DNA of 64,000 nt, taken from positions 2,690,859 through 2,754,858 of the forward strand of contig CAVYTA010000006.1 of NCBI GenBank assembly GCA_963771355.1. Direction: 5' to 3'. Within the stretch, counting starts at the first letter, position 1; each line of letters opens with the position of its first letter. Positions 7,776 through 42,005 of this stretch are shown here, piece by piece. A program made the position numbers and the translations under genes. The notes under the pieces were generated by a model that worked only from the letters and a program-made list of their open reading frames with translations, was not told the DNA's origin and did not search any database. Source of the DNA: an uncultured Candidatus Rokubacteria bacterium. GTDB taxonomy: Bacteria; Methylomirabilota; Methylomirabilia; Rokubacteriales; CSP1-6.

Positions 7776-8831
7776 GTGGAGCTTCTCCGGCTCGCCGACG
7801 TCAGCAAGCGCTACGCGGCCGATCAGCCGCCCGCGGTGGACGGCCTGTCGCTGGTGGTGGCGGAGGGCGAGATCGTGGCGCTGCTCGGCCCGTCAGGATG
7901 CGGTAAAACAACCACGTTGCGGCTGATCGCCGGCTTCGAGACCCCGGATTCGGGCACGGTGAGCCTGCGCGGCAAGGTGGTGGCGGGACCTGGGTCGTTC
8001 GTACCTCCGGAGACGCGAGGCGTGGGTATCGTCTTCCAGGACTACGCGCTCTTCCCCCATCTCTCCGTGGAAGACAATGTCGGATTCGGCCTCGACCGGC
8101 TGACGCGCGCGGCCCGCCGGGCCCGGGTGGCCGGGGTGCTGGACCTGGTGGGCCTGGGGGGCTTCGGCGGCCGCTACCCCCACGAGCTGTCCGGCGGGCA
8201 GCAGCAGCGGGTGGCGGTGGCCCGCGCGCTGGCGCCCGCCCCCGCCCTCCTGCTCCTCGACGAGCCATTCTCCAACCTGGACGCCGACCTTCGCGCGCAG
8301 ATGCGGGAGGAAGTCGAGACCATTCTCCGGAACACCAAGACCACCGCGATCTTCGTCACGCACGATCAGGAGGAGGCCTTCGCCCTCGCCGATCGCGTGG
8401 GCGTCCTCTCACACGGGCGGATGGAGCAGATCGCCGCGCCGGAGACGGTCTACCATCACCCCGCCTCACAGTTCGTCGCCGAGTTCGTGGGCGCCGCCGA
8501 CTTCCTGCCCGGGGTCGTGACCAGCGAGGGCATCGTCACGGAGCTGGGGATATTCGGCAACCGCGACGAGCTGGAGCCGGGCGAGCGGGTCGAGGTCATG
8601 ATCCGTCCCGACGACATCGCCTTCGTGCCGCAGGAGGATGGGAGCGGGGTCATCACGCGCCGTTTCTTCCGGGGCTCGGAGTGCCTCTACTGCATCGAGC
8701 TGCCCTCGGGGCACCGCGTGCACTCCTCGCAGCCGTCCTCGTCCACCCTGCCCACCGGGACGCGCGTGCGTGCACAGGCGCACGTGCTGCACGTGGTGAC
8801 CTTCCCCGCCGTGGACGCGGCGGGGACCTAG
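7776..8831 (+). CDS. ABC transporter ATP-binding protein (FbpC/PotA type with TOBE domain)
   Basis: GPSGCGKT, FQDYALFPHL, LSGGQQQR, LLLDEPF, VTHDQEEA. Confidence 0.92.
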   Translation: MELLRLADVSKRYAADQPPAVDGLSLVVAEGEIVALLGPSGCGKTTTLRLIAGFETPDSGTVSLRGKVVAGPGSFVPPETRGVGIVFQDYALFPHLSVEDNVGFGLDRLTRAARRARVAGVLDLVGLGGFGGRYPHELSGGQQQRVAVARALAPAPALLLLDEPFSNLDADLRAQMREEVETILRNTKTTAIFVTHDQEEAFALADRVGVLSHGRMEQIAAPETVYHHPASQFVAEFVGAADFLPGVVTSEGIVTELGIFGNRDELEPGERVEVMIRPDDIAFVPQEDGSGVITRRFFRGSECLYCIELPSGHRVHSSQPSSSTLPTGTRVRAQAHVLHVVTFPAVDAAGT

Positions 8832-10063
8832 GCGTCGAGGCCGGGAGTCACGCCCCGGAGCAGGCGTCGCTCCAGGCGCTCGAGACGATGGCCGAGCGCC
8901 TCGCGCGCTCCCACCGCCGCGCGCCCGGCTTCGGCCCGGGCCAGCGCTTCCTGCACCACCGAGCGCGCGCGCGCCCAGTCCCGGAGCCGGTGCTCGTCGA
9001 TCTTTGCCATCTCCTCCCAGGGCCGGGGGTCGAAGCTGCGCTGCTCGCGCGCCAGCTCGTCCCAGAGCGCCCGGGCCTCCGGCCAGCGCGCGCGCCGCTT
9101 CTCCCCCCACGCCAGCCGGCCGAGCAGGCGGGCCCGCCCGGCGCCGGCGAGGCCGCGCGCGAGGGCCTCCCGGAAGCACGCCTCTCCCCGATCGGCGTCG
9201 CGACGCTCCCAGAGGTGCCCCAGCCCGGCCAGCTCGTCCGGGGCCACGTCCGCGCCGGGGGCCCGGGCCGCCGCGTGCGCGACCCAACCGGTCAGCGCGG
9301 CAAGCGAGAGGATGTCGTGGCGGTTGTGCTCGAAGACACGAGGGAGCTCTCCCGGCTGCTTGCGACGAAGATATTCGAAGTAGACGGCGGGGATGAGCGC
9401 GCCGGGCAGGTCGTCCCGCCGGTGGAAGCCGAGCACGTTCTGCTCCACGGTCCCGAGGCGGCAATCGGGGAGCCGCGCGCTCCACAGGCGGCGCGCGGCG
9501 GGGAGGAGGTCGAGGTGAAAGGGGTCGCTCGGCCAGCGCCGGCGGCCGAGCACGAAGCGTGTCTCGAGCAACGGCAGGTCGAAGCCGGCGCCATTGTAGG
9601 TGACCAGCCCCTCGAAGCCGCGGACGAGCCCGTCGAGCGCGGCCAGCAGCGCCGGCTCCTCGTCGAGGTCGCGCATGAAGTACTGGCGCACCTCGAAGTC
9701 GTCGCCGTCCACGAAGCCCACCCCGACCAGGAACACGTAGGTGCCGGTGCCGCCGGCCAAGCCGGTGGTCTCGGTGTCCAGAAAGAGGAGCCGCGGAGAC
9801 CCGGGGGGGAGGAGCTCGCGGCGCGCGAGCATGGCCAGACACTCGCCGTCCAGCGCCCCGATGGGCCCGAGCGGCTGCGCGCCGTGCGCGCCGGCGAGGG
9901 GGTAGCGGCGCCGCGTGACGAAGATGGAGCCGCGTTCCGTCTCCTCCGCCGCGCCCTCCACCAGCTCTTCCAGGGTGCCCCGGCGGACGGGTCGCGCCGC
10001 CGCCGCGCGCGTGCGCTCCTCGATGCGGCGGATGACCTGACGGAGCTCGGCGGGGACGGCCAC
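8828..10063 (-). CDS. YprB/MrfB-like RNase H-fold (DnaQ-like) exonuclease with C-terminal TPR-like helices
   Basis: FLDTETTGL, TYNGAGFDLP, HLDLL, HNRHD; directly downstream of the DUF1998 helicase. Confidence 0.85.
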   Translation of the reverse strand: MAVPAELRQVIRRIEERTRAAAARPVRRGTLEELVEGAAEETERGSIFVTRRRYPLAGAHGAQPLGPIGALDGECLAMLARRELLPPGSPRLLFLDTETTGLAGGTGTYVFLVGVGFVDGDDFEVRQYFMRDLDEEPALLAALDGLVRGFEGLVTYNGAGFDLPLLETRFVLGRRRWPSDPFHLDLLPAARRLWSARLPDCRLGTVEQNVLGFHRRDDLPGALIPAVYFEYLRRKQPGELPRVFEHNRHDILSLAALTGWVAHAAARAPGADVAPDELAGLGHLWERRDADRGEACFREALARGLAGAGRARLLGRLAWGEKRRARWPEARALWDELAREQRSFDPRPWEEMAKIDEHRLRDWARARSVVQEALARAEAGRAAVGAREALGHRLERLERRLLRGVTPGLDA

Positions 10064-10076
10064 GGGAGAGGCCCCC

Positions 10077-12428
10077 TCAGCGCCGCGGAACCAGCCGGCG
10101 GAGGATGGCCAGCGCGATGGGCTTGGCGCGCCGGCCCACCTCGTTCACCGGGCCCACGCAGGACGGACAGCCGGTCTTGCACGGGCAAGCCTCCAGGGTG
10201 GCCAGGCCCTGGGCGAGAAGCTCGGGGAGGATCTCGAAGATCCGTTCGGCGAGGCCGATGCCGCCGGGCTGGCTGTCGTAGAGGTACAGCGTGGGCGTGA
10301 AGCGCTCGGAGCCGAGGAGCTGGGCGCGCTGCGTCTCCCGCGTGACCACCACGCCGGCCTCGGCCGGCGAGCCGTCGCCCAGCCAGGCCCCCACGTCGCG
10401 CACGTCGCAGAGCAGGAAGATGGGCGCGAGATGGTGGAGGAGATAGGTGAGCGCTCGCATCCCGTCCACCAGCTCCTCGCGGCTCGGCGAGATCTGGACG
10501 AGGAGGGTGGGATCGACGGCCAGCCAGGCACTGGTGGTCTGCATCTCCTGCTGGGGCAGCTCCACCTCGCCCGATCCCACGTTCTCCAGCGTGACCATCT
10601 TGATCTTCTTGAAGCCCACCACCTTCTCCGCCACCAGCACCTCGCCCCCCTCCGACGTCCAGCCGGGCGCCTCCCGCCGCGTGAGGTGCTGGAGGATCCA
10701 CACACCCTTGGCGCTGATGGCATCGGTGAAGTAGTCCACCGCCACCCGCTTGACGTAGGCGACCTTCTCCTCGTCCTCACGGTAGTGGAGCTCCTGCACC
10801 TCGAACGGCTCGCCCTCCACCATGTAGATGGCCTTGGGGTACACCATGGCGAATGCGCTCTTCCAGTCCACCTCGGCGATGATCTGCCGCCGCTTGACCT
10901 CCTTGGCATCGCGGGCGGTGGTGTCGATCACCAGGAAGTTGTCCGAGGTGACCGTGCGCAGCGAGATGTGGTCGGCGGGATAAGTCTCCGAGGTCCAGTG
11001 ATAGACGCCGCCCGCGCGGTGCAGCAGCCCCTCCGCCTCCAGCGCGGCCAGGGGCGCGGCCACGTCACCGCCGAACACCTCCCCCTCCGCGAAGGGCAGC
11101 TCGAAGGCGCCGCACTTGAGGTGGTTGACGAGGATGAAGGGATTCTCGGGGTTGATCCGCGCGTGCTCGGGCGAGGCGCCGAAGAGATACTCCGGATGCG
11201 AGGCGAGGAACTGGTCCATGGGCGCGCTGCTGGCGACCAGCACCGCCGCCGAGGGGCCGCTGCGCCGCCCCGCCCGGCCCGACTGCTGCCACAGCGAGGC
11301 GATGGTGCCGGGGAAGCCCGCGAGCACGGCCACGTCGAGGTGGCCGATGTCGATGCCGAGCTCGAGCGCGCTGGTGGCCACCACTCCGAGCACGTCGCCC
11401 GAGCGCAGCCCCTGCTCGACTTCGCGGCGGCGAAGGGGGAGGTAGCCGCCCCGATAGCCGCGGACGATGCCGGCGTCGCCCGTCCGGTCCTCCACCAGCC
11501 GCTTGATGGTGGACAGCAGCACCTCGGTCGACAGCCGGCTCTGGGCGAAGACGATGGTGGCGATCTTCTCCCGGAGGAAGCGTCCGGCGAGCTTGGCCGC
11601 CTCCCCCAGATACGGCGCGCGGATGCCGAGGTCCGGATTCACCACCGGCGGGTTGTAGCAGATGAAGATCTTGTCACCCGCGGGCGCGCCGTTGTCCGCC
11701 AGCTCGGTCACCGGCTCGCCGGTGAGGCGAGCGGCAAGCTCGCCGGGATTGGCGATGGTGGCGGAGGCCATGATGAACTGCGGCGTGGAGCCGTAGTGGC
11801 GGCAGATTCGCTTGAGGCGCCGGAGTACGTTGGCGAGGTGGCTGCCGAACACGCCGCGGTACGCGTGCAGCTCGTCGATCACGACGTAGCGGAGGTTCTG
11901 GAAGAGGTTCACCCACTTGGTGTGGTGGGGCAGTATCCCCGAGTGGAGCATGTCCGGATTGGTGAGAACGAGGTTGGCCCGGGCGCGCACCGCGCGCCGC
12001 GCGTCCTGTGGTGTGTCGCCGTCGTACGTGAACATGCGGAGGTCGGGCAGGCTCTTGGCGAGCTCGGTGAGCTCGGCGAGCTGGTCCTGGGCGAGCGCCT
12101 TGGTGGGGAAGAGATAGAGCACGCGCCCTTCCGGCTGCTGCACCAGGCTCTGCAACACGGGGAGGTTGTAGCAAAGCGTCTTGCCCGACGCGGTGGGGGT
12201 GACCACCACCAGGTGTTCGCCCTTGGCCACGATCTCGAACGCCTTCGCTTGATGCGAGTACAGCTGCTCCACGCCGCGGGCCCGCAGGGCCTCGATCAGT
12301 CGCGGATCGAGTGACGAGGGAAACGGGGCGAAGACGGGGGGACGCGCCTCGAGGTGCCGCGTGGCCGTGATGAGGGGACCGGTCTCGAGCGAGGTCAAGA
12401 GCTCGTCGAGAAGCTCCCGCAGCGGCAT
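10077..12428 (-). CDS. DEXH-box helicase with DUF1998 Cys cluster (YprA/MrfA/SftH/Hrq1 family)
   Basis: TPTASGKT, PTKALAQDQ, DELH, ATSALELGIDIG, QQSGRAGRR, C-terminal CPCKTGCPSC. Confidence 0.93.
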   Translation of the reverse strand: MPLRELLDELLTSLETGPLITATRHLEARPPVFAPFPSSLDPRLIEALRARGVEQLYSHQAKAFEIVAKGEHLVVVTPTASGKTLCYNLPVLQSLVQQPEGRVLYLFPTKALAQDQLAELTELAKSLPDLRMFTYDGDTPQDARRAVRARANLVLTNPDMLHSGILPHHTKWVNLFQNLRYVVIDELHAYRGVFGSHLANVLRRLKRICRHYGSTPQFIMASATIANPGELAARLTGEPVTELADNGAPAGDKIFICYNPPVVNPDLGIRAPYLGEAAKLAGRFLREKIATIVFAQSRLSTEVLLSTIKRLVEDRTGDAGIVRGYRGGYLPLRRREVEQGLRSGDVLGVVATSALELGIDIGHLDVAVLAGFPGTIASLWQQSGRAGRRSGPSAAVLVASSAPMDQFLASHPEYLFGASPEHARINPENPFILVNHLKCGAFELPFAEGEVFGGDVAAPLAALEAEGLLHRAGGVYHWTSETYPADHISLRTVTSDNFLVIDTTARDAKEVKRRQIIAEVDWKSAFAMVYPKAIYMVEGEPFEVQELHYREDEEKVAYVKRVAVDYFTDAISAKGVWILQHLTRREAPGWTSEGGEVLVAEKVVGFKKIKMVTLENVGSGEVELPQQEMQTTSAWLAVDPTLLVQISPSREELVDGMRALTYLLHHLAPIFLLCDVRDVGAWLGDGSPAEAGVVVTRETQRAQLLGSERFTPTLYLYDSQPGGIGLAERIFEILPELLAQGLATLEACPCKTGCPSCVGPVNEVGRRAKPIALAILRRLVPRR

Positions 12429-33107: not shown

Positions 33108-33183
33108 GGGCCCATAGCTCAATTGGCAGAGCCCCCGGCTCATAACCGGTCAGGTCTTGGTTCGAGTCCAAGTGGGCCCACCA
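33108..33183 (+). tRNA. tRNA with CAT anticodon, probably tRNA-Ile2 (lysidine-modified)
   Basis: Cloverleaf with G1-C72 pair, CCGG-CTCATAA-CCGG anticodon arm, CCA end; lacks initiator features; lies after rpoD like E. coli ileX. Confidence 0.9.
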
Positions 33184-34377: not shown

Positions 34378-34408
34378 CCCGCTCCCGACCGTCCGCTACG
34401 CTCCGCTC

Positions 34409-34981
34409 ATGCCGGCCATCCAGACGAAGCGCTGGACCCGCGTGGAGTACGAGCGCCTGATCGACCTCGGCGTGTTCGGCCCCCAGGATCGCCTCGAGCT
34501 GCTGGGCGGCCAGCTCGTCGTCGCCGAGCCCCAGGGCACGGATCACTACTCCGCCATCCTTCGCGCGACTCGCGTGCTCCAGGCCGCCTTCGGAGCGGGC
34601 TGGCTAGTCCGGCCCCAGGGCCCCGTCGCGCTCGACGACGAATCCGAGCCCGAGCCGGACGTGGCGGTGGTGTCGGGCGACATCGATGACTATCGGCTCG
34701 CGCACCCCGCTCGCCCCGTCCTCGCCATCGAGGTCGCCGTCTCGAGCCTCGCGCTGGATCGTTCGCACAAGGCCAGTCTCTACGCCCGCGCGGGCGTGGC
34801 GGACTACTGGATCATCAATCTGGTGGATCGCGTCCTCGAAGTGCACCGGGATCCGGCCCCCGACGCCGAGGCGCCCTATGGCTGGGCCTATGCGTCCATC
34901 GAGATCCTGAGCGGCGGCGCCGCGATCGCACCGCTCGCCGCTCCCACGTCTCCGATCGCCGTGACGGCCCTACTCGCCTGA
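34409..34981 (+). CDS. Uma2/DUF820 PD-(D/E)xK family protein
   Basis: RWT-x-x-EY, ELLGG, EPEPDVAVV, IEVA, K-x-x-LYARAGV-x-DYWIINL. Confidence 0.9.
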   Translation: MPAIQTKRWTRVEYERLIDLGVFGPQDRLELLGGQLVVAEPQGTDHYSAILRATRVLQAAFGAGWLVRPQGPVALDDESEPEPDVAVVSGDIDDYRLAHPARPVLAIEVAVSSLALDRSHKASLYARAGVADYWIINLVDRVLEVHRDPAPDAEAPYGWAYASIEILSGGAAIAPLAAPTSPIAVTALLA

Positions 34982-35060
34982 CGCTGCCGCGCATGCGGCC
35001 CCGCCGCATCGCGCGCCGGTGCTATACTTTCTCACGTAACGACGCGCTCTTTGATTGACA

Positions 35061-35471
35061 CCAGAGAAGGCCGGATGGTCGCCGGCGCGGGGTAACTCGC
35101 GCGGGAGGAAAGTCCGGGCTCCGCAGGGCAGGGTGCTGGCTAACCGCCAGGGGGGGCGACCCCACGGCAGAGTGCCACAGAAAAGAGACCGCCGATCGGC
35201 GCAAGCCGAGCGGTAAGGGTGAAACGGTGAGGTAAGAGCTCACCAGCGGCGCGGGTGACCGTGCCGGCTCGGTAAACCCCACCCGGAGCAAGGTCAAATA
35301 GGAGAGCGATCCCGGTGTCGGGCGCAAGCCTGGCGCATGGGTGAAGCGCGGCCCGCGTGGCGCTCTCGGGTACGGCCGCTTGAGGCGCCGGGTAACCGGC
35401 GTCCTAGAGAAATGACCGTCGGGCTGGGCGAGAGTCCAGCCAACAGGACCCGGCTTACAGGCCTTCTCTGG
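35061..35471 (+). ncRNA. rnpB: RNase P RNA (type A)
   Basis: GAGGAAAGTCCGGGCTC, AGTGCCACAGAAA, GGTAAACCCC..GGAGCAAGG, AACAG.ACCCGGCTTA; P1 CCAGAGAAGGCC pairs with GGCCTTCTCTGG. Confidence 0.98.
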
Positions 35472-36426
35472 ATATTTCATAGGTTACACAGCACCCCCAC
35501 CCGGGAGGTACAGGACTCGGGCCTGTAACCCCGGCCTTTCCACCGTCCCCTATAGGGGGGCGGTTGGAGAGGCGCATCACCGCGTCGACGAGCGCCTGGT
35601 TGACGACGCGCAGGTACAGCGCCGTGGTCGCAATGTCCTCGTGGCCGAGCGCATCCTGCACCTCGCGGATGTTCGCGCCGCGCTCGAGCATCATCGTGGC
35701 GGAGCTATGGTGGAAGCGGTGCGGGATGCAGTCCGAAACGTTGGCGGCCTTGCCCCAGGCCGCCGTCCGCTTCTCGATCATCCGACGGCTCCACCGCATC
35801 CCGGAGCGCTGCTGGATCAGCGGGGCCTTGCGGTTCAGGATGTCGCCGGCAGAGAGCATCCAGTCGCGCACGAGGTCATCGAGTTCGGGAACCACCGGGA
35901 CGACGCGTTCCTTGTCCCCCTTCCCCCGGACGCGGAGCGCCCCGGCCCGGATCCCGTCGCTCAGGCGGATGTTCCCGAGCTGGAGATCGCACACCTCGGT
36001 CACGCGGAGCCCCGCATAGGCGAGGAGCCCCCGGATCACCGCATCGACCCCGGTCAGGTGGAGCGCCATCAGCCGCTCGTGCTCGTCCGGCATGTAAGGC
36101 AGCGGCAGCCGCTTGGGGCGCTTGATCTTCGGTGACTCGTCCACGGGGTTCGCGATCCAGTAGCGCCGCCGCACCCCCCACTTGGCGAACTGGTTGAGGG
36201 TCACGCGCCGCCGGAAGAGCGTGGCCATGCCGAGACCCTTCTTCGAGAGCTCCCGGAGATAGAGCCGGACCAGGGCCTCGTCGAAGTCCAGCACCGTGTC
36301 GGCGCGGTGGAAGGTCGCGAGGGCGACCAGCAGGTTGAGGTCCGACTCATACGCGACGAGCGTGCTCCGGGTCAATGAGACACGAGCGTCCAGTAGGAAT
36401 TGCTGCACGGCGGTTGAGAGTTTCAT
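35455..36426 (-). CDS. Tyrosine recombinase/integrase (XerC-like), possibly inactive
   Basis: GLRVTEV, RGKGDKER, PHRFHHS (HxxR changed to HxxH), LGHEDIATTALY; ATG at 36426. Confidence 0.92.
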   Translation of the reverse strand: MKLSTAVQQFLLDARVSLTRSTLVAYESDLNLLVALATFHRADTVLDFDEALVRLYLRELSKKGLGMATLFRRRVTLNQFAKWGVRRRYWIANPVDESPKIKRPKRLPLPYMPDEHERLMALHLTGVDAVIRGLLAYAGLRVTEVCDLQLGNIRLSDGIRAGALRVRGKGDKERVVPVVPELDDLVRDWMLSAGDILNRKAPLIQQRSGMRWSRRMIEKRTAAWGKAANVSDCIPHRFHHSSATMMLERGANIREVQDALGHEDIATTALYLRVVNQALVDAVMRLSNRPPIGDGGKAGVTGPSPVPPGWGCCVTYEISREGL

Positions 36427-36720
36427 ATGTCGCCACCCCTTACGAAGGCCGTGAGGATGAACGGGGCCGCGATCGGAAGCCGCCGGCCGTAGCTCGGCGA
36501 GCGGGGCGTGCTGCTCCACAACGGGAACAGAATTTGTCTATCGGGAAGAGGAGCGTGGCACGACACCCCGACGTATTACAGAACGATCACTTCTGTTCGG
36601 CGTGCGGAAAACGGTTGCGGTGGGCCTGTACAGGCGCCGCGCGTGACGCACGAGGGCACGATCTATACCGTGACGCGCGAGAAGCTGATCTGCTGCCGGT
36701 GCGGCGATAGCTCGTGGCGG

Positions 36721-36779
36721 GATAAGAAAGAGGCCAGTGATGCTCGTAGCGAGATAAGAAAGAGGCCCAGTGATGCCCG
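36721..36779 (+). repeat. Tandem ~26 bp direct repeat (32 bp period)
   Basis: GATAAGAAAGAGGCCAGTGATGCTCG and GATAAGAAAGAGGCCCAGTGATGCCCG. Confidence 0.85.
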
Positions 36780-36849
36780 GTCCAGTCAGCGATAGTCCCC
36801 TGGGCCATAAGGTCTGGCTCTGGCTCACCACGGACAAAGACGGCTCGAA

Positions 36850-37857
36850 TCAGCGCCGGCCCCGGTACTCCGAGGGCGTTGCGCCCGTCCACCGCCGGAA
36901 CGCGCGGTTGAAGGCGCTGACTTCCGAATAGCCGAGGAGACAGGCGACCTCGGTAAGGGTGTGCTTGCGGTCTCGCAGATAGCTGAGGGAGAAGCGCCGA
37001 CGTGTATCGTCGACCAGGCGCTTGAAATCGAGCCCCTCCTCTCGCAGCCGTCGCTGCAGCGTGCGCCGGCTCATCGCCAGCTTCCGGGCGACCCGCAGGA
37101 GGTCCGGGGCGCCGTCCCGCAGCGATTCCCCGACCGCTCGTCGCACCGCGGCGAGGAGGCCGTCTTCGCGCGGCGCCTCCAGCAGCGCACGCTCGAGATA
37201 TCGCTTCAGGATCGGGTAGAGCCGCTCGTCGGCGGCTGGCACCGGCCGGTCAGCGAACTCCCGCTCGATGACGAACGCGTTCATGGCGGCGCCGAAGGCG
37301 ACCGGGGCCGCGAACACCCGGGCGTGCTCGGCCGGATCGCGTGGGGCGGGATGCGCGAACTGGACCTCGGCGGGGGCCCACTGGCTTCCCGCCATGAGGC
37401 GCAAGACGTTCCGCGCCACCGCCAGGCTGTACTCGTTGTGCTGGCGGAGCGCGGCAATGGAAGGGTCGCTGACCTCGTGTCGGAAGTACGCCCACGCACC
37501 CTCGACAGCGAAGGACGTACGGGCTCCCTCGTTGTGAACGCTGAGATAGCGGGCAATGTTCTCGAAGGCCGTCCCGAAGGTGGGCGAGTTCAGCGCCAGG
37601 TAGGTCACGGGGCCCACGTTCTTCGGGTTGTAGCGCTCGCCGAAGTGCAGCCCGAAGCACGCGTCGCCGGTTGCCTCCGCCGCCGCCTCGAGGAGGCGGG
37701 CGAACGTCGCGCAGACAATGACCCCGTGCGGGTCGCTGACGTCGCGCCGACGAAGCCCGAGGGAGCGCAGGACCTGATCGGGGTCGCCACCTTTCGCCGC
37801 GATTGCGTCGATCAGGCCAGTCGCCGCGGACAGAGAGATCGTCGGAGCCGTGCGCAT
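36850..37857 (-). CDS. AraC-family regulator with Arabinose_bd_2-type N-terminal domain
   Basis: ATGDACFGLHFG, V-x-F-x-H, MSRRTLQRRL, LGYSEVSAFNRAFRRWTG-x-TP. Confidence 0.92.
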   Translation of the reverse strand: MRTAPTISLSAATGLIDAIAAKGGDPDQVLRSLGLRRRDVSDPHGVIVCATFARLLEAAAEATGDACFGLHFGERYNPKNVGPVTYLALNSPTFGTAFENIARYLSVHNEGARTSFAVEGAWAYFRHEVSDPSIAALRQHNEYSLAVARNVLRLMAGSQWAPAEVQFAHPAPRDPAEHARVFAAPVAFGAAMNAFVIEREFADRPVPAADERLYPILKRYLERALLEAPREDGLLAAVRRAVGESLRDGAPDLLRVARKLAMSRRTLQRRLREEGLDFKRLVDDTRRRFSLSYLRDRKHTLTEVACLLGYSEVSAFNRAFRRWTGATPSEYRGRR

Positions 37858-38050
37858 GCGCTCTGTACCGTGCGTACCCAAGTGTCAAGAGAATGGCGCG
37901 AGATGTCAAGACAGCCCCGCTCGGTCCCTGGGATAGTGGTTCACAGTTTCGCAAACGCAGGAGTCAAGGAACGGTGGATCGAGAACAAGTGGAAGACGCG
38001 GGCCGCGATATGACCGATGCTGTGGCTCGATATCCTGCTCACCATCCTCA

Positions 38051-38359
38051 TTGGGGGCGGCACTGTGTCTCCATGTCTTCTACTCGAACGTCGTCATCGC
38101 ATACATCGATGCCGACCAGCTCATCCTGAACTTTATTGACTACAACCCGAAGGCCACAGATCCGACGAACCCGGCGGATACTCGGCCCGAGGTAGCGACT
38201 CAGGCGGAAATGCTGGCCGCGCCGACTTCGTGGTGGCTCATGCTGAGCGTTTGGGTGGGCGCTTTAGTCGCGTCCGCTCTCTTGTGGGCGTTGGTGTACT
38301 GGTACGTCGTGAGGCCGGTGGCAAGGTTCATCGCCGTGTGGGCAAGGTTCGCCGGCTGA
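38051..38359 (+). CDS. Small hypothetical membrane protein (5' part possibly frameshifted, ATG 38017)
   Basis: Hydrophobic C-terminal segment; its TGA overlaps the ATG of the SLOG gene. Confidence 0.35.
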   Translation: MGAALCLHVFYSNVVIAYIDADQLILNFIDYNPKATDPTNPADTRPEVATQAEMLAAPTSWWLMLSVWVGALVASALLWALVYWYVVRPVARFIAVWARFAG

Positions 38360-38769
38360 TGCGCGTCCTCGTGACGGGAGGCCGCGACTACGGCGAATCT
38401 GACGATGATGAAACGGGCTATCTCTGGGGACTCCTCGATGGCGTGCATGCGATCAAGCCGATCACCGCGCTGATTCATGGGGCGCATCGGAAGGGTGCTG
38501 ACGCCTTGGCGGATCAGTGGGGAAATAAACGGCTTGTTGCCGTTCTCCGTTTCCCTGCGCACTGGGATCATACCCCGCGGTGTGAACCTGGCTGTTCGCG
38601 TCAGACGGGCGGTGCGGCTGGGCCGATCCGTAACGAGCGGATGATCGACGAGGCCAAGACGGATGTTGCGATTGCGTTTCCCGGTGGTGACGGGACGCTG
38701 GATACGGTGACGCGAGCGCGGCACGGGAAGGTGCTCGTCATCGACGCTGATAGCGAGACAAAGCGATGA
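38359..38769 (+). CDS. SLOG-superfamily protein (DUF2493 / cpYpsA-related)
   Basis: MRVLVTGGRDY, IHG..KGADALA, AGPIRNERM, AFPGG-x-GT. Confidence 0.85.
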   Translation: MRVLVTGGRDYGESDDDETGYLWGLLDGVHAIKPITALIHGAHRKGADALADQWGNKRLVAVLRFPAHWDHTPRCEPGCSRQTGGAAGPIRNERMIDEAKTDVAIAFPGGDGTLDTVTRARHGKVLVIDADSETKR

Positions 38770-39086
38770 CGCGCTCCCAGGACTTTCTGACGCCGCTCGC
38801 TCGAGCGGAGCGACTGCTCGCGGTGCGACTGGCGACGCTCGAGCGGGATCTCGAGACGGATCCGGAGAAGTGGGGGCCGGCGATGTGGGACGCGTATCTT
38901 CACGCCCTCGATGTCTACCTCCGTGTGCTTCAGCGCGTTGCGCCGGATCCGCTGCTGACGACCGCGCAGGTCGCTGAGCGCTTCGGCGTGTCGCCGCGGA
39001 CGATTCGTCGGCGACAAGCGAAAGGGGAGCTCGAGCCGGCGGTGAACGGGCGGGGTCGGGGTGGATCCCGGTGGGGCACGTCGTGA
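38766..39086 (+). CDS. Excisionase/MerR-like HTH DNA-binding protein
   Basis: LLTTAQVAERFGVSPRTIRR..GEL; ATGA overlap with the SLOG gene. Confidence 0.72.
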   Translation: MTRSQDFLTPLARAERLLAVRLATLERDLETDPEKWGPAMWDAYLHALDVYLRVLQRVAPDPLLTTAQVAERFGVSPRTIRRRQAKGELEPAVNGRGRGGSRWGTS

Positions 39087-39463
39087 TTGATAAGTCTTCT
39101 GATACGTCAGACGCGCTCGATACGTCAGACGCGCTTGATCTTCAGCGATTGGGTCTCTTGACCCTTGCGGCGATGGACATGAGCACGGATCGGATCATTC
39201 AGCTCAGCCAATCGCGGCGCGGAGTCTACCGGGTCGACGTGATGGCGCACGAATTTCACCACACTTCGCGCTCGGCGATTTCCTTGCTCGACGCCATGGA
39301 CAACGCGTGCGACTGGCTCCGCCGGATGGCGAAGCCCTTGGGGCCGGCGAACATGGTTCTTCAATTCGGTCGTCGAGCTCGTCGAGCTCGAGTTGGGCTG
39401 GGTAGCGCTTTCCAGTTCACTAAGGACACGTTCGGCGGCTACCACGACCCGGGGGGCGCATGA
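39071..39463 (+). CDS. Hypothetical protein
   Basis: Open frame following the HTH gene, with an 18 bp tandem repeat at 39101-39136; no recognisable motif. Confidence 0.3.
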   Translation: MGHVVIDKSSDTSDALDTSDALDLQRLGLLTLAAMDMSTDRIIQLSQSRRGVYRVDVMAHEFHHTSRSAISLLDAMDNACDWLRRMAKPLGPANMVLQFGRRARRARVGLGSAFQFTKDTFGGYHDPGGA

Positions 39464-39519
39464 TCCGCTGGTACGAGGGGCGAGCGCGCCGAGGGTCAAG
39501 GGGTCAGGCCCGCAACCAC

Positions 39520-39856
39520 AAGCGGTAGAGGCCGCCGAGGACTGGATGATGATCCACGGATTCGTGTGGACCGGCAAGGTGATGAGCGGGGCGCGGCTGG
39601 TAAAGGTCTCCCCGGCCGTCAGGGACAGGATGATTCCCGTCGTGGCGTCCTTCACGCTCGCGTGCGCTAGGGCGGCTTGCAAGGTGGGGAAGTCCTTCCC
39701 GGCCCCAACCGTCTTCGTCACGTAGCCGGTCATGTCGGGCATCGCCGTGTCCACCCACGCGCGCGGAAGTTCGGGGAGCGCCATCAGGTCCGCTTCACGT
39801 AGAGACCGGAGACGGCCGCGAGCAAGAGGACCACAAACCCTGTGCGGATCATCATC
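39520..39856 (-). pseudogene. Fragment of a secreted pectin-lyase-like / beta-helix protein N-terminus
   Basis: Signal-peptide-like MMIRTGFVVLLLAAV ending in a stop, then PELPRAWVDT-x-MP...LQAAL...LTAGETFT...WIIIQSS; similarity is lost afterwards. Confidence 0.45.
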
Positions 39857-40211
39857 GCTAAGGTCTCCTATACCGCCAGAGTTCGGCTTTCCCGCCCGAC
39901 GATCCGCCGGCGGGGCCGTAGGTTGAGATCGCGCGCACCCCGCCGCAGTAGCCCGTCGGCCCGTCGCAGAAAAGGCTCCACCACACGATGCCCGGCGTCA
40001 CTGGGCGGTCTCCGATGACCGGGGAGGGGAAGGGGGTGCTTACACGTCCGGCCTTTACGTGCAGGACTTCCCATGAGGTCCAGTCCCCGGCTTACAGGCC
40101 TCCCCCCGCAACCAACGAGTCACTTGACTCGACCCCCCGCAGCCGGTTATCCCTGTCGAACCGAGACCGCCGGGACCCGTTGCCCCGAGCGCCGGAGGGG
40201 AAAGTGAGATC

Positions 40212-42005
40212 ATGATGACCGAAGACGCGCTGCGGGAGCTCATCGGACAGGTCCGCAGGGGAATGGTCAGCCGCCGGCAGTTCATGGAGACCATGCTGGC
40301 CCTGGGGGTGACGGCTCCCCTGGCCGCCCAGGCCCTGTCCGCCGGCGGCGCGGAAGCCCAGCGCCCGGCCCCGCCCGCCTTCGTGCCGACGCGGCGCGGC
40401 GGGGGCGGTGACCTCAAGATCCTCATGTGGGATGCGCCCACGATGCTGAATCCCCACTTCGGGCGCGGGCTCCGCGACCTGACCGCCTCACGCCTCTTCT
40501 ACGAGCCCCTGGCCGCGCCGCAGGGCGACGGCACCTTCGCCCCCGTGCTCGCGGAGGAATTGCCCACGCTCAAGAACGGCGGCATCGCGAAGGACGGCCG
40601 CTGGGTGCTGTGGCGGCTCAAGAAGAACGTCACCTGGCACGACGGGGCGCCCTTCACCGCCGACGACGTGATCTTCAACTGGCAGTTCGCCACCGATCCC
40701 GGCACCGCCGCCTCCACCCGCCCCGGCTTCCTCGAAGTGTCCCGGGTGGACAAGATCGACGCGCACACCGTGAAGGTGGTGTTCGAGAAGCCGCAGCCCT
40801 TCTGGGCGGTGGTCTTCGCGGGCGGCGGCCTCATCCCGCGCCACGTGTTCGAGTCGGTCAAGGGCGCGGGGGCGCGCGAGGCGGTGGGCATGATCAAGTC
40901 GGTGGGGACCGGGCCCTACCGGCTCGTCGAGTTCCGGACCGGCGACGTGATCCGTGCCGAGCTCAACCCCACCTACCACGTGCCCAACCGGCCCTACTTC
41001 GACCGCCTCGAGATCAAGTGCGGCGGCGACTCCGCCGGCGCCGCCCGCGCCGTCCTCCAGACCGGCGAGTACGACTTCGCCTACTACGTGCTGGTGGAGG
41101 AGGAAGTGCTGAAGCGCATCGAGGCCGGCGGCAAGGGGCGGGTGCTCACCATCCCCTCCAGCGGGGTCAGCCATATCCAGCTCAACCAGACCGATCCCGT
41201 GACCGAGGTGGACGGGGAGCGCTCGAGCCTCAAGGCGCCGCATCCCTGCCTCACCAATCCCGCCGTCCGCGCGGCGGTCTCCCTGCTGGTGGACCGCCAG
41301 AACATCCAGGACCATCTCGTCGGCCGCACCGGGCAAATCGCGGTGAACTTCCTCAACTCGCCCGAGCGGTTCCGGTCGACCAACACCACCTGGGAATTCA
41401 ATCCGGAGAAGGCCAGCGCGCTGCTGGACGGCGCCGGCTGGACACGCGGCGGGGACGGGATCCGGGCCAAGGACGGCAAGCGGCTGCGACTCGTGTTCCA
41501 GGCCACCGCCAACACCACCGTGCAGAAGCTCCAGGCGGTGGTGAAGCAGACGGCGGCGCGCGCGGGCATCGAGATCGAGATCAAGGCCGTCCCCGCCCAG
41601 GTCTACTTCTCCGCCGACATGTCGAACCCGGACGCCTACCCGCGCTTCCTCGCGGACCTGCAGACCTACACCACCTTCACCGGCCTCGACCCGCAGTTCT
41701 TCATGGCGCAGTTCATCACCTCCGAGATCCCCACCAAGGAGAACAAGTGGACGGGGCGAAACATCACGCGCTGGCGGAATCCCGAGTACGACCGCACCTG
41801 GGCCGCCGCCGAGCACGAGATGGATCCCGTCAAGCGGACGGCGCTCTTCATCCGCATGAACGATCTCGTGGTGCAGAGCGGGGTCATCATCCCGGTCACG
41901 TGGCGGAACGTGATCCACGCCGCCGCCAACAATCTGGCCGGGGTGGATCCCAATAGCTGGGATTCGATCTTCGGGAGCATCGCCTACTGGTACCGGCCGA
42001 GCTGA
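40212..42005 (+). CDS. Peptide ABC transporter substrate-binding protein (family 5), Tat-like signal
   Basis: SRRQF motif, WHDGAPFTADDV, GTGPY, NP-x-VR-x-A. Confidence 0.9.
   Translation: MMTEDALRELIGQVRRGMVSRRQFMETMLALGVTAPLAAQALSAGGAEAQRPAPPAFVPTRRGGGGDLKILMWDAPTMLNPHFGRGLRDLTASRLFYEPLAAPQGDGTFAPVLAEELPTLKNGGIAKDGRWVLWRLKKNVTWHDGAPFTADDVIFNWQFATDPGTAASTRPGFLEVSRVDKIDAHTVKVVFEKPQPFWAVVFAGGGLIPRHVFESVKGAGAREAVGMIKSVGTGPYRLVEFRTGDVIRAELNPTYHVPNRPYFDRLEIKCGGDSAGAARAVLQTGEYDFAYYVLVEEEVLKRIEAGGKGRVLTIPSSGVSHIQLNQTDPVTEVDGERSSLKAPHPCLTNPAVRAAVSLLVDRQNIQDHLVGRTGQIAVNFLNSPERFRSTNTTWEFNPEKASALLDGAGWTRGGDGIRAKDGKRLRLVFQATANTTVQKLQAVVKQTAARAGIEIEIKAVPAQVYFSADMSNPDAYPRFLADLQTYTTFTGLDPQFFMAQFITSEIPTKENKWTGRNITRWRNPEYDRTWAAAEHEMDPVKRTALFIRMNDLVVQSGVIIPVTWRNVIHAAANNLAGVDPNSWDSIFGSIAYWYRPS

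Follow-up and report, generated by a model that had tools for sequence, protein, structure and literature searches.

A likely immobilised phage-type remnant at the 3' end of the gene for RNase P RNA in a Candidatus Rokubacteria bacterium

Introduction

Can rnpB, the gene for the RNA of RNase P, serve as the chromosomal attachment site (attB) of an integrative element? The question is raised by a 4.6-kb island directly behind rnpB in a 64,000-nucleotide (nt) stretch of an uncultured Candidatus Rokubacteria genome (contig CAVYTA010000006.1; this stretch is termed the window, and whole-genome scans refer to the 5.5-Mb assembly). A reading of the window made from its letters alone (the sequence-only reading) had proposed such an element, with an integrase clade specialised for rnpB. 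The analysis reported here assigns a probability of about 0.9 to the island being a remnant of temperate-phage type, likely immobilised and likely inserted by a Xer-like tyrosine integrase into the 3' end of rnpB. Treated as observations in this assessment are the target, both ends, the empty site, the two-way association of integrase and rnpB, phage relatives with the element's own site (attP form) and the lesions.

In 2025, ffs, the gene for the 4.5S signal recognition particle (SRP) RNA, was described as a newly found attB, and the attB classes given there are protein genes, tRNA and tmRNA genes, csRNA and intergenic sites, a list without RNase P RNA (PMC12540744). No report of rnpB or RNase P RNA as an attachment site was found in the literature searched, largely openly accessible main texts; the mentions of rnpB in passages of PMC2516327, PMC3119063, PMC10763512 and PMC10383233 are incidental, and PMC12884075 contains none.

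Results

The target gene and the ends of the island

The two junctions of the island (attL and attR) and their surroundings comprise the following features.

35063-35473, + strand: rnpB, the class A RNase P RNA gene and target (Rfam RF00010, 292.6 bits)
35449-35471, + strand: attL identity block of 23 nt, common to the empty site and predicted to be element-supplied; contains the 3' strands of helices P4 and P1
35449-35454, + strand: CCCGGC, predicted 6-bp strand-exchange (overlap) region, with half-site ACAG(A/G)A on its left and half-site TTA(C/T)AG on its right
35455-36426, - strand: Xer-like tyrosine integrase of 323 amino acids (aa), convergent on rnpB (PF00589 and PF02899; AlphaFold/Foldseek)
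35505-35530, + strand: P' arm motif of two tandem half-site-like boxes; the opposite strand encodes the C-terminal VTGPSPVPP tail of the integrase
35710-35712, - strand: integrase codon 239, His for the catalytic Arg of the HxxR motif; Phe242Ser is also present
40039-40085, + strand: P arm of attR, whose TTAC and half-site boxes lie at -47 and -28; public sequencing run X4 and the family spacing are longer by 34 nt
40086-40101, + strand: core of attR, the displaced rnpB 3' fragment; compared with run X4, 30 nt between CCT microhomologies are deleted
40212-42005, + strand: host family-5 solute-binding protein (SBP) gene, the right flank

The genome contains a single rnpB, and the 16-nt core CCCGGCTTACAGGCCT is found as exact copies at 35449-35464 and 40086-40101, with a spacing of 4,637 nt. 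At up to 2 mismatches the window holds two matches, against 0.02 expected by chance, and at 0-1 mismatch this pair represents the only copies in the whole genome. The exact repeat 4.6 kb downstream that the sequence-only reading had described is thereby confirmed, as are the intact P1 pairing of the left copy (a 12-bp form) and the tyrosine integrase, helix-turn-helix (HTH) and SLOG genes between the copies, all three of which are matched by Pfam families. An AraC-family gene (36850-37881, - strand), which that reading had not named, also lies between them. No tRNA or tmRNA gene lies within 35000-40300, and a scan for promoters and terminators around rnpB returned nothing at its 3' end. Similarity to genome G002, the closest same-genus relative, restarts at 40109.

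The empty site and the alleles of the right end

Twenty public sequencing runs from seven studies contain part of the stretch, and four of these runs were compared. A 771-nt contig of soil run X9 comprises 35268-35471, a further 25 nt and then 40104-40645, with 0 and 3 differences in the two flanks; this is the empty junction between rnpB and the SBP gene that had been suggested as a check, from the same or a very close species. Filled and empty forms co-occur within the same runs. Five same-genus genomes carry neither a second core copy nor an integrase of the clade described below.

The alleles of the right end differ between runs. Run X4, in which the island is present, has 20 additional nt of tail after 35471, joined to 40099, and 34 additional nt at 40071. 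Its attR therefore seems whole, with that of the window appearing to be shorter by 30 nt in the tail, where the gap falls between two CCT trinucleotides, and by 34 nt in the arm; the right copy had been described from its letters as a decayed displaced 3' end, which the 30 further nt of run X4 bear out. The short attR form of the window is real, being reproduced by an X9 contig (39255-40119) and an X2 contig (39924-40092), neither of which has the insertions of X4.

In the five same-genus genomes, a nonribosomal peptide synthetase (NRPS) cluster sits directly behind rnpB and before the orthologous SBP gene (L276:3912-8804 in G002; L277-L280), and the distance from rnpB to the SBP gene ranges from 5.5 to 22 kb in the four NRPS genomes with both on one contig. 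The species of the window has no NRPS cluster, even at the empty site. Loss of the attR tail through deletion of an NRPS cluster was considered and rejected, since the X9 empty site is already without NRPS genes and X4 reveals a local difference of 30 nt.

A clade of integrases associated with rnpB

The structure model of the integrase (model confidence, pLDDT, 86) revealed a core-binding and a catalytic domain alone, the protein beginning with its SAM-like domain. In a Foldseek search, identities to the nearest structures (XerA, integron integrase, XerH and Brujita integrase) were 18-24%. The protein falls below all NCBIfam family cut-offs, with 165 and 137 bits for XerC and XerD (cut-offs 335 and 330) and 71.7 bits for integron integrase TIGR02249 (cut-off 265).

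A protein search returned clade relatives at 37-73% identity, of which 24 together with the window protein form alignment A1, and three collection scans yielded 240 loci. The clade stands apart from host XerC/D and other integrases in the tree (support 0.86), and among 183 genomes of the order, 5, including that of the window, have a clade-level integrase (>230 bits), with host Xer genes reaching at most 187 bits. Membership was assigned by tree and a best-hit rule, and the borderline loci L083, L178 and L270 were removed before counting. Clustering of the 64 clade loci at 85% DNA identity gave 42 clusters, five of them too short, leaving 37 informative clusters. rnpB or a copy of its tail is linked to the integrase in 25 of the 37: the integrase is convergent on the rnpB 3' end within 400 nt in 15, the rnpB tail alone lies beside the integrase in seven (among them L227, where rnpB is cut by the contig end), and the tail is farther away or inverted in three. 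The association also holds in reverse, as all five viral contigs with the tail pattern, two of them newly found, carry an adjoining clade integrase. Integrase homologues beside rnpB, the search for which had been proposed, were thus found from both directions. Among 241 outgroup matches, one Xer-like fragment is convergent on the rnpB 3' end, its locus having been fetched for its rnpB, and two host xer genes lie on the 5' side of rnpB.

Two small elements, L193 (6.3 kb) and L210 (2.8 kb), have both ends present. At L191 (integrase 73% identical), L112 and L115 the tail is surrounded by phage genes, encoding a terminase, a primase or helicase, a resolvase and a virion protein (annotation of 45 selected open reading frames, ORFs, at three of five ORF-called loci), and we read these loci as attP-form phage genomes. 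The targeted rnpB genes are 85-97% like those of the window's order, so that the host range seen covers that order. No named phage with this integrase was found at >35% identity among 50,697 INPHARED records.

Several loci depart from the common arrangement. At L196:1293, L114:11582 and L201:6129, the rnpB tail is either separated from the integrase by 630-740 nt or inverted, and additional genes lie between them; these appear to be rearranged attP modules. L089:4186-8248 holds a clade integrase with a strong arm motif and a core cut at its 5' side, 4 kb from rnpB, which would be explained by secondary insertion in attL or by a tandem array. A fragment resembling host XerC/D ends right at the rnpB 3' end in genome G015 (L281:3384-3800), without the arm motif, and may be either another recombinase located at this spot or a host gene that has moved.

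Attachment-site anatomy

Counted back from CCCGGC, positions -6 to -3 and -1 show no variation among the host rnpB ends (30/30); the element ends agree at these positions in 2-5 of 12, and from +9 to +25 in 8-11 of 12. The drop in identity just 5' of CCCGGC suggests that exchange starts at the 5' edge of this hexamer, which is the inferred crossover position, and the element would bring the rnpB tail through helix P1. CCCGGC is complementary to a GUCCGGG segment near the rnpB 5' end, a pairing that forms the P4 helix of the RNase P catalytic core.

Among 22 integrase-side arms, a motif sampler identified a motif of 26 nt, which 18 of the arms have at +74 to +78 (471 bits, compared with 269 for one shuffled set). 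The window had been held out, and 35505-35530 is the best motif site of its island at 17.4 bits, the next having 5.1, at an offset of +56; the two new viral contigs, also held out, have the motif at 24.1 and 19.1 bits, one of them at +55. The motif reaches 10 bits or more at 31 of 34 rnpB-linked clade loci, compared with 2 of the 18 clade loci that are unlinked and 4 of the 226 in the outgroup. The first of its boxes is similar to the host left half-site (mean 8.1 bits, reached by 0.02% of background) and, weakly, the inverted right half-site (reached by 2% of background). On the far side, TTAC lies at -81/-82 and the half-site box at -62/-63 in the P arms of L193, L196, L201 and L210, and the 34 additional nt of run X4 shift the P-arm boxes of the window from -47/-28 to -81/-62.

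The short motifs that the sequence-only reading saw in both arms fared differently. CAGGACT, at 35511 and 40062, proves to be the first box of the arm motif conserved in related elements. The 9-mers CCGGCCTTT and inverted AGCACCCCC were not counted and were dropped as candidate arm sites, as each is matched by ∼10-11% of random 96-nt segment pairs, which is chance level singly (both together, 1.6%), and conservation was not found. The arm DNA motif would also explain why the C-terminal peptide of the integrase is conserved in A1 yet predicted to be disordered. A protein motif at this place was rejected, residues 291-323 having a pLDDT <50 and coinciding with the arm DNA motif.

The lesion in the integrase

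The catalytic residues Arg141, Lys169, His236, His262 and Tyr271 are kept. Tyrosine-recombinase chemistry uses a second catalytic arginine; Arg is found at the corresponding position 239 in 24 of the 25 rows of A1, and is replaced by His in the window and in all four other cluster members covering the site. The integrase of the window is likely inactive because of this replacement. At position 35500 the window is one base longer than runs X1 and X4, and three cluster members end at 313 aa, which together indicate that the 323-aa tail of the window is a frame variant.

Discussion

Proposed mechanism

The attB would comprise ∼20 bp of conserved region V (CR-V) and P4, consisting of the left half-site, the 6-bp overlap CCCGGC and the inverted right half-site. 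The attP would hold the overlap together with the right half-site and the rnpB tail through P1, and in both arms additional half-site copies at fixed distances (∼+76, -62/-82). Strand exchange by an arm-less integrase across the 6-bp overlap would then replace the last 23 bases of rnpB with the element's own copy, and the RNA gene would stay whole as a result. With no arm-binding domain present, the core-binding domain likely binds the half-site copies in the arms, by analogy with the accessory repeats of attI1, and attP would thereby differ from attB.

After integration, most phage genes would have been lost, AraC-family cargo gained, the catalytic arginine mutated and parts of attR lost in some strains. 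The mutated arginine and the attR losses make self-excision likely impossible, and later decay would have frozen the element in place. The P1 duplex has 12 pairs and -25.8 kcal/mol in the integrated form, compared with 5 pairs and -9.6 kcal/mol after modelled excision from the window attR; P1 would be shortened if the element were excised from this allele.

A wider proposal is tentative, and its truth is on balance doubted here: a family of arm-less Xer-like phage integrases may use the P4/CR-V strand of rnpB as attB, with direction determined by core half-site copies in both attP arms. The 15 recognised bp equal the Rfam class A consensus, so this would provide a single-copy landing system across many bacteria. 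An element of this kind would become unremovable once attR decays, because the element alone supplies the end of an essential gene.

Alternative explanations and points against the proposed reading

The same target and integrase family could also belong to an element that is still mobile as a satellite, excised and spread by the intact integrase of a helper phage. This would explain why filled and empty sites co-occur, and it gains from run X4, which seems to retain both ends intact, from the small complete elements L193 and L210 and from the intact phage relatives. Mobility of this kind is nevertheless unlikely, as no attP joint is among the joints listed, no gene for replication or packaging interference was recognised in the six ORFs, and the two deletions in the window attR are found in X9 also and, for the arm, in X2.

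Integration by the host XerC/XerD at a dif-like site inside rnpB, in the manner of an integrative mobile element exploiting Xer (IMEX), would make the recombinase of the element accessory. Since dif sites consist of two half-sites around a 6-bp spacer, the predicted attB has the expected layout, and the best family matches of the protein are XerC/XerD. The full catalytic set is, however, present in 24 of 25 A1 members, the sister integrase described below adjoins a different gene, and the arm motif travels with the element integrase, as its distribution among linked, unlinked and outgroup loci reveals; this explanation is thus very improbable. That the region behind rnpB is a mere variable spot, its 16-nt copy due to chance, transposon target duplication or assembly error, is barely credible in spite of the differences within the genus (with NRPS genes in relatives) and the shortness of the window's copy, given the chance expectation of 0.02 matches, the right end reproduced by independent runs X9 and X2, the precise empty site in X9 and the identical core and boundary in 11 other element ends.

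Several points weigh against insertion of a phage-type element by an rnpB-directed integrase, the reading preferred here. No rnpB core lies within 1 kb in 12 of the 37 informative clusters, and at L032:1589-2584 (= G151, L283) a sister integrase adjoins the beginning of a prmA-like gene (177 bits for TIGR00406, cut-off 183), whose start codon is inside a site of the same half-site/6-bp/half-site spacing with a different overlap, likely a target switch to a protein gene. The clade is therefore not exclusively specific for rnpB, and the specialisation put forward from the sequence alone stands for the 25 linked clusters and not for the clade as a whole. A shared alternative RNA target for the unlinked members was sought with Rfam at 16 such loci, yielding one tRNA, ∼1 kb upstream of the L036 integrase. 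Of the junctions looked for, that of attB is present in X9, whereas an attP joint, right end back to left end, is absent from the joints listed, which come from contigs that drop rare forms. The X4 contig was taken as attR and not attB by length arithmetic (78 = 34 + 14 + 30), the 12/12 agreement at core positions 0 to +8 arises by construction from the search pattern, and the P-arm spacing is clear in 4 of 11 other element ends. Loci were fetched with a pattern containing PHRFRH, which renders counts of Arg among them circular, and A1 and the cluster counts alone were used. Phage structural genes (head, tail, packaging, replication) are absent among the six ORFs of the window element tested, which distinguishes it from a complete prophage, such genes being present in L191, L112 and L115.

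Comparison with known systems

The element works like an island of the tRNA type, as described for Islander tRNA/tmRNA islands (PMC4383910), without being a member of that group by target. As there, the integrase adjoins a target that is split and regenerated by element sequence, a same-orientation displaced 3' fragment marks the far end, and other strains have an uninterrupted empty site. The differences are that the target is rnpB (RF00010), the crossover would lie in a strand of the ribozyme catalytic core, and the integrase has no arm-binding domain. Phage phiEf11 in ffs (PMC12540744) also has a non-tRNA housekeeping RNA gene as attB, and its core of 27 nt (∼23-26 here) is near the end of the integrase gene; the RNA, host phylum and integrase all differ.

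Integrases of the Brujita/BPs type (PMC6109161, PMC3694055) are similarly composed of a core-binding and a catalytic domain only, and direction control raises the same open question. Here, by contrast, attP overlaps the integrase's own 3' end and half-site copies are conserved in both arms. The Brujita integrase (5vfz) was matched by Foldseek with an E value of 4.9e-11 at 20% identity, no closer than XerA, IntI or XerH. The integron site attI1, with DR1 and DR2, also combines a Xer-like recombinase with additional direct-repeat copies of the binding site beside the core (PMC8946536); the present protein does not belong to the IntI family, no cassette array is evident, and the repeats are on a mobile element, at both sides. 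Chromosomal XerC/XerD provide the best family match and the same two-domain fold, from which the integrase differs in scoring far below the cut-offs, forming a separate clade and occurring in 5/183 genomes of the order. Unlike the lambda-type heterobivalent system, it lacks the N-terminal arm-binding domain, and where lambda arm-type sites are unlike core-type sites, the arm motifs here appear to resemble the core half-site.

rnpB would represent a third class of stable-RNA target, beside tRNA/tmRNA and ffs. Island finders based on tRNA and tmRNA genes would miss rnpB, and soil bacteria of the Rokubacteria type therefore probably hold an uncounted layer of prophages. The left half-site, the overlap and TTA are nearly invariant across 30/30 related rnpB ends and agree with the Rfam consensus; the predicted crossover falls where the ribozyme is most conserved, which suggests a single-copy integration tool of broad host range. 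From sequence alone, the locus offers a full testable set (attB, attL, two attR alleles and phage attP), bears on the open question of direction control in arm-less integrases, and would illustrate how a dead element is fixed through supplying the end of an essential gene.

Other features of the island and its surroundings

The remaining features between the two ends are as follows.

36841-37973, - strand: segment with an AraC-family regulator (ORF 36850-37881), cargo; 98% identity to two host-genome copies
38359-38769, + strand: YAcAr/SLOG family gene (PF10686, E 2.6e-16)
38766-39086, + strand: HTH_17 gene, excisionase-like (PF12728, 29.7 bits, cut-off 27)
39125-39784, - strand: ORF or fragment, without a Pfam, PHROG or INPHARED match
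39478-39533, - strand: segment resembling the L191 integrase leader, with 80% identity to DNA 54-109 nt upstream of the L191 integrase

No homologue of the HTH_17 gene was found among the fetched related loci. The position of the leader-like segment suggests an insertion of ∼3 kb that separates it from the start of the integrase; together with a joint in run X1 that bypasses 38854-39476, it points to both internal insertion and internal deletion. Short tandem duplications are also present within the island, at 39101-39136 (18 nt, with one unit fewer in run X4) and 36710-36767 (26 nt).

The two host copies of the AraC segment, 98% identical, are located on contig C1 at 8478-9610 and 10894-12027 and form a 2.4-kb tandem duplication; C1 also carries inverted partial copies of the 140 nt upstream of AraC. 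Upstream of rnpB, a Uma2-family gene (34409-34981) is variable within the genus, and a contig of run X9 skips 34378-35013. Behind rpoD, a tRNA with a CAT anticodon is found at 33108-33183, which ARAGORN assigns to Met and which may be a lysidine Ile2 tRNA.

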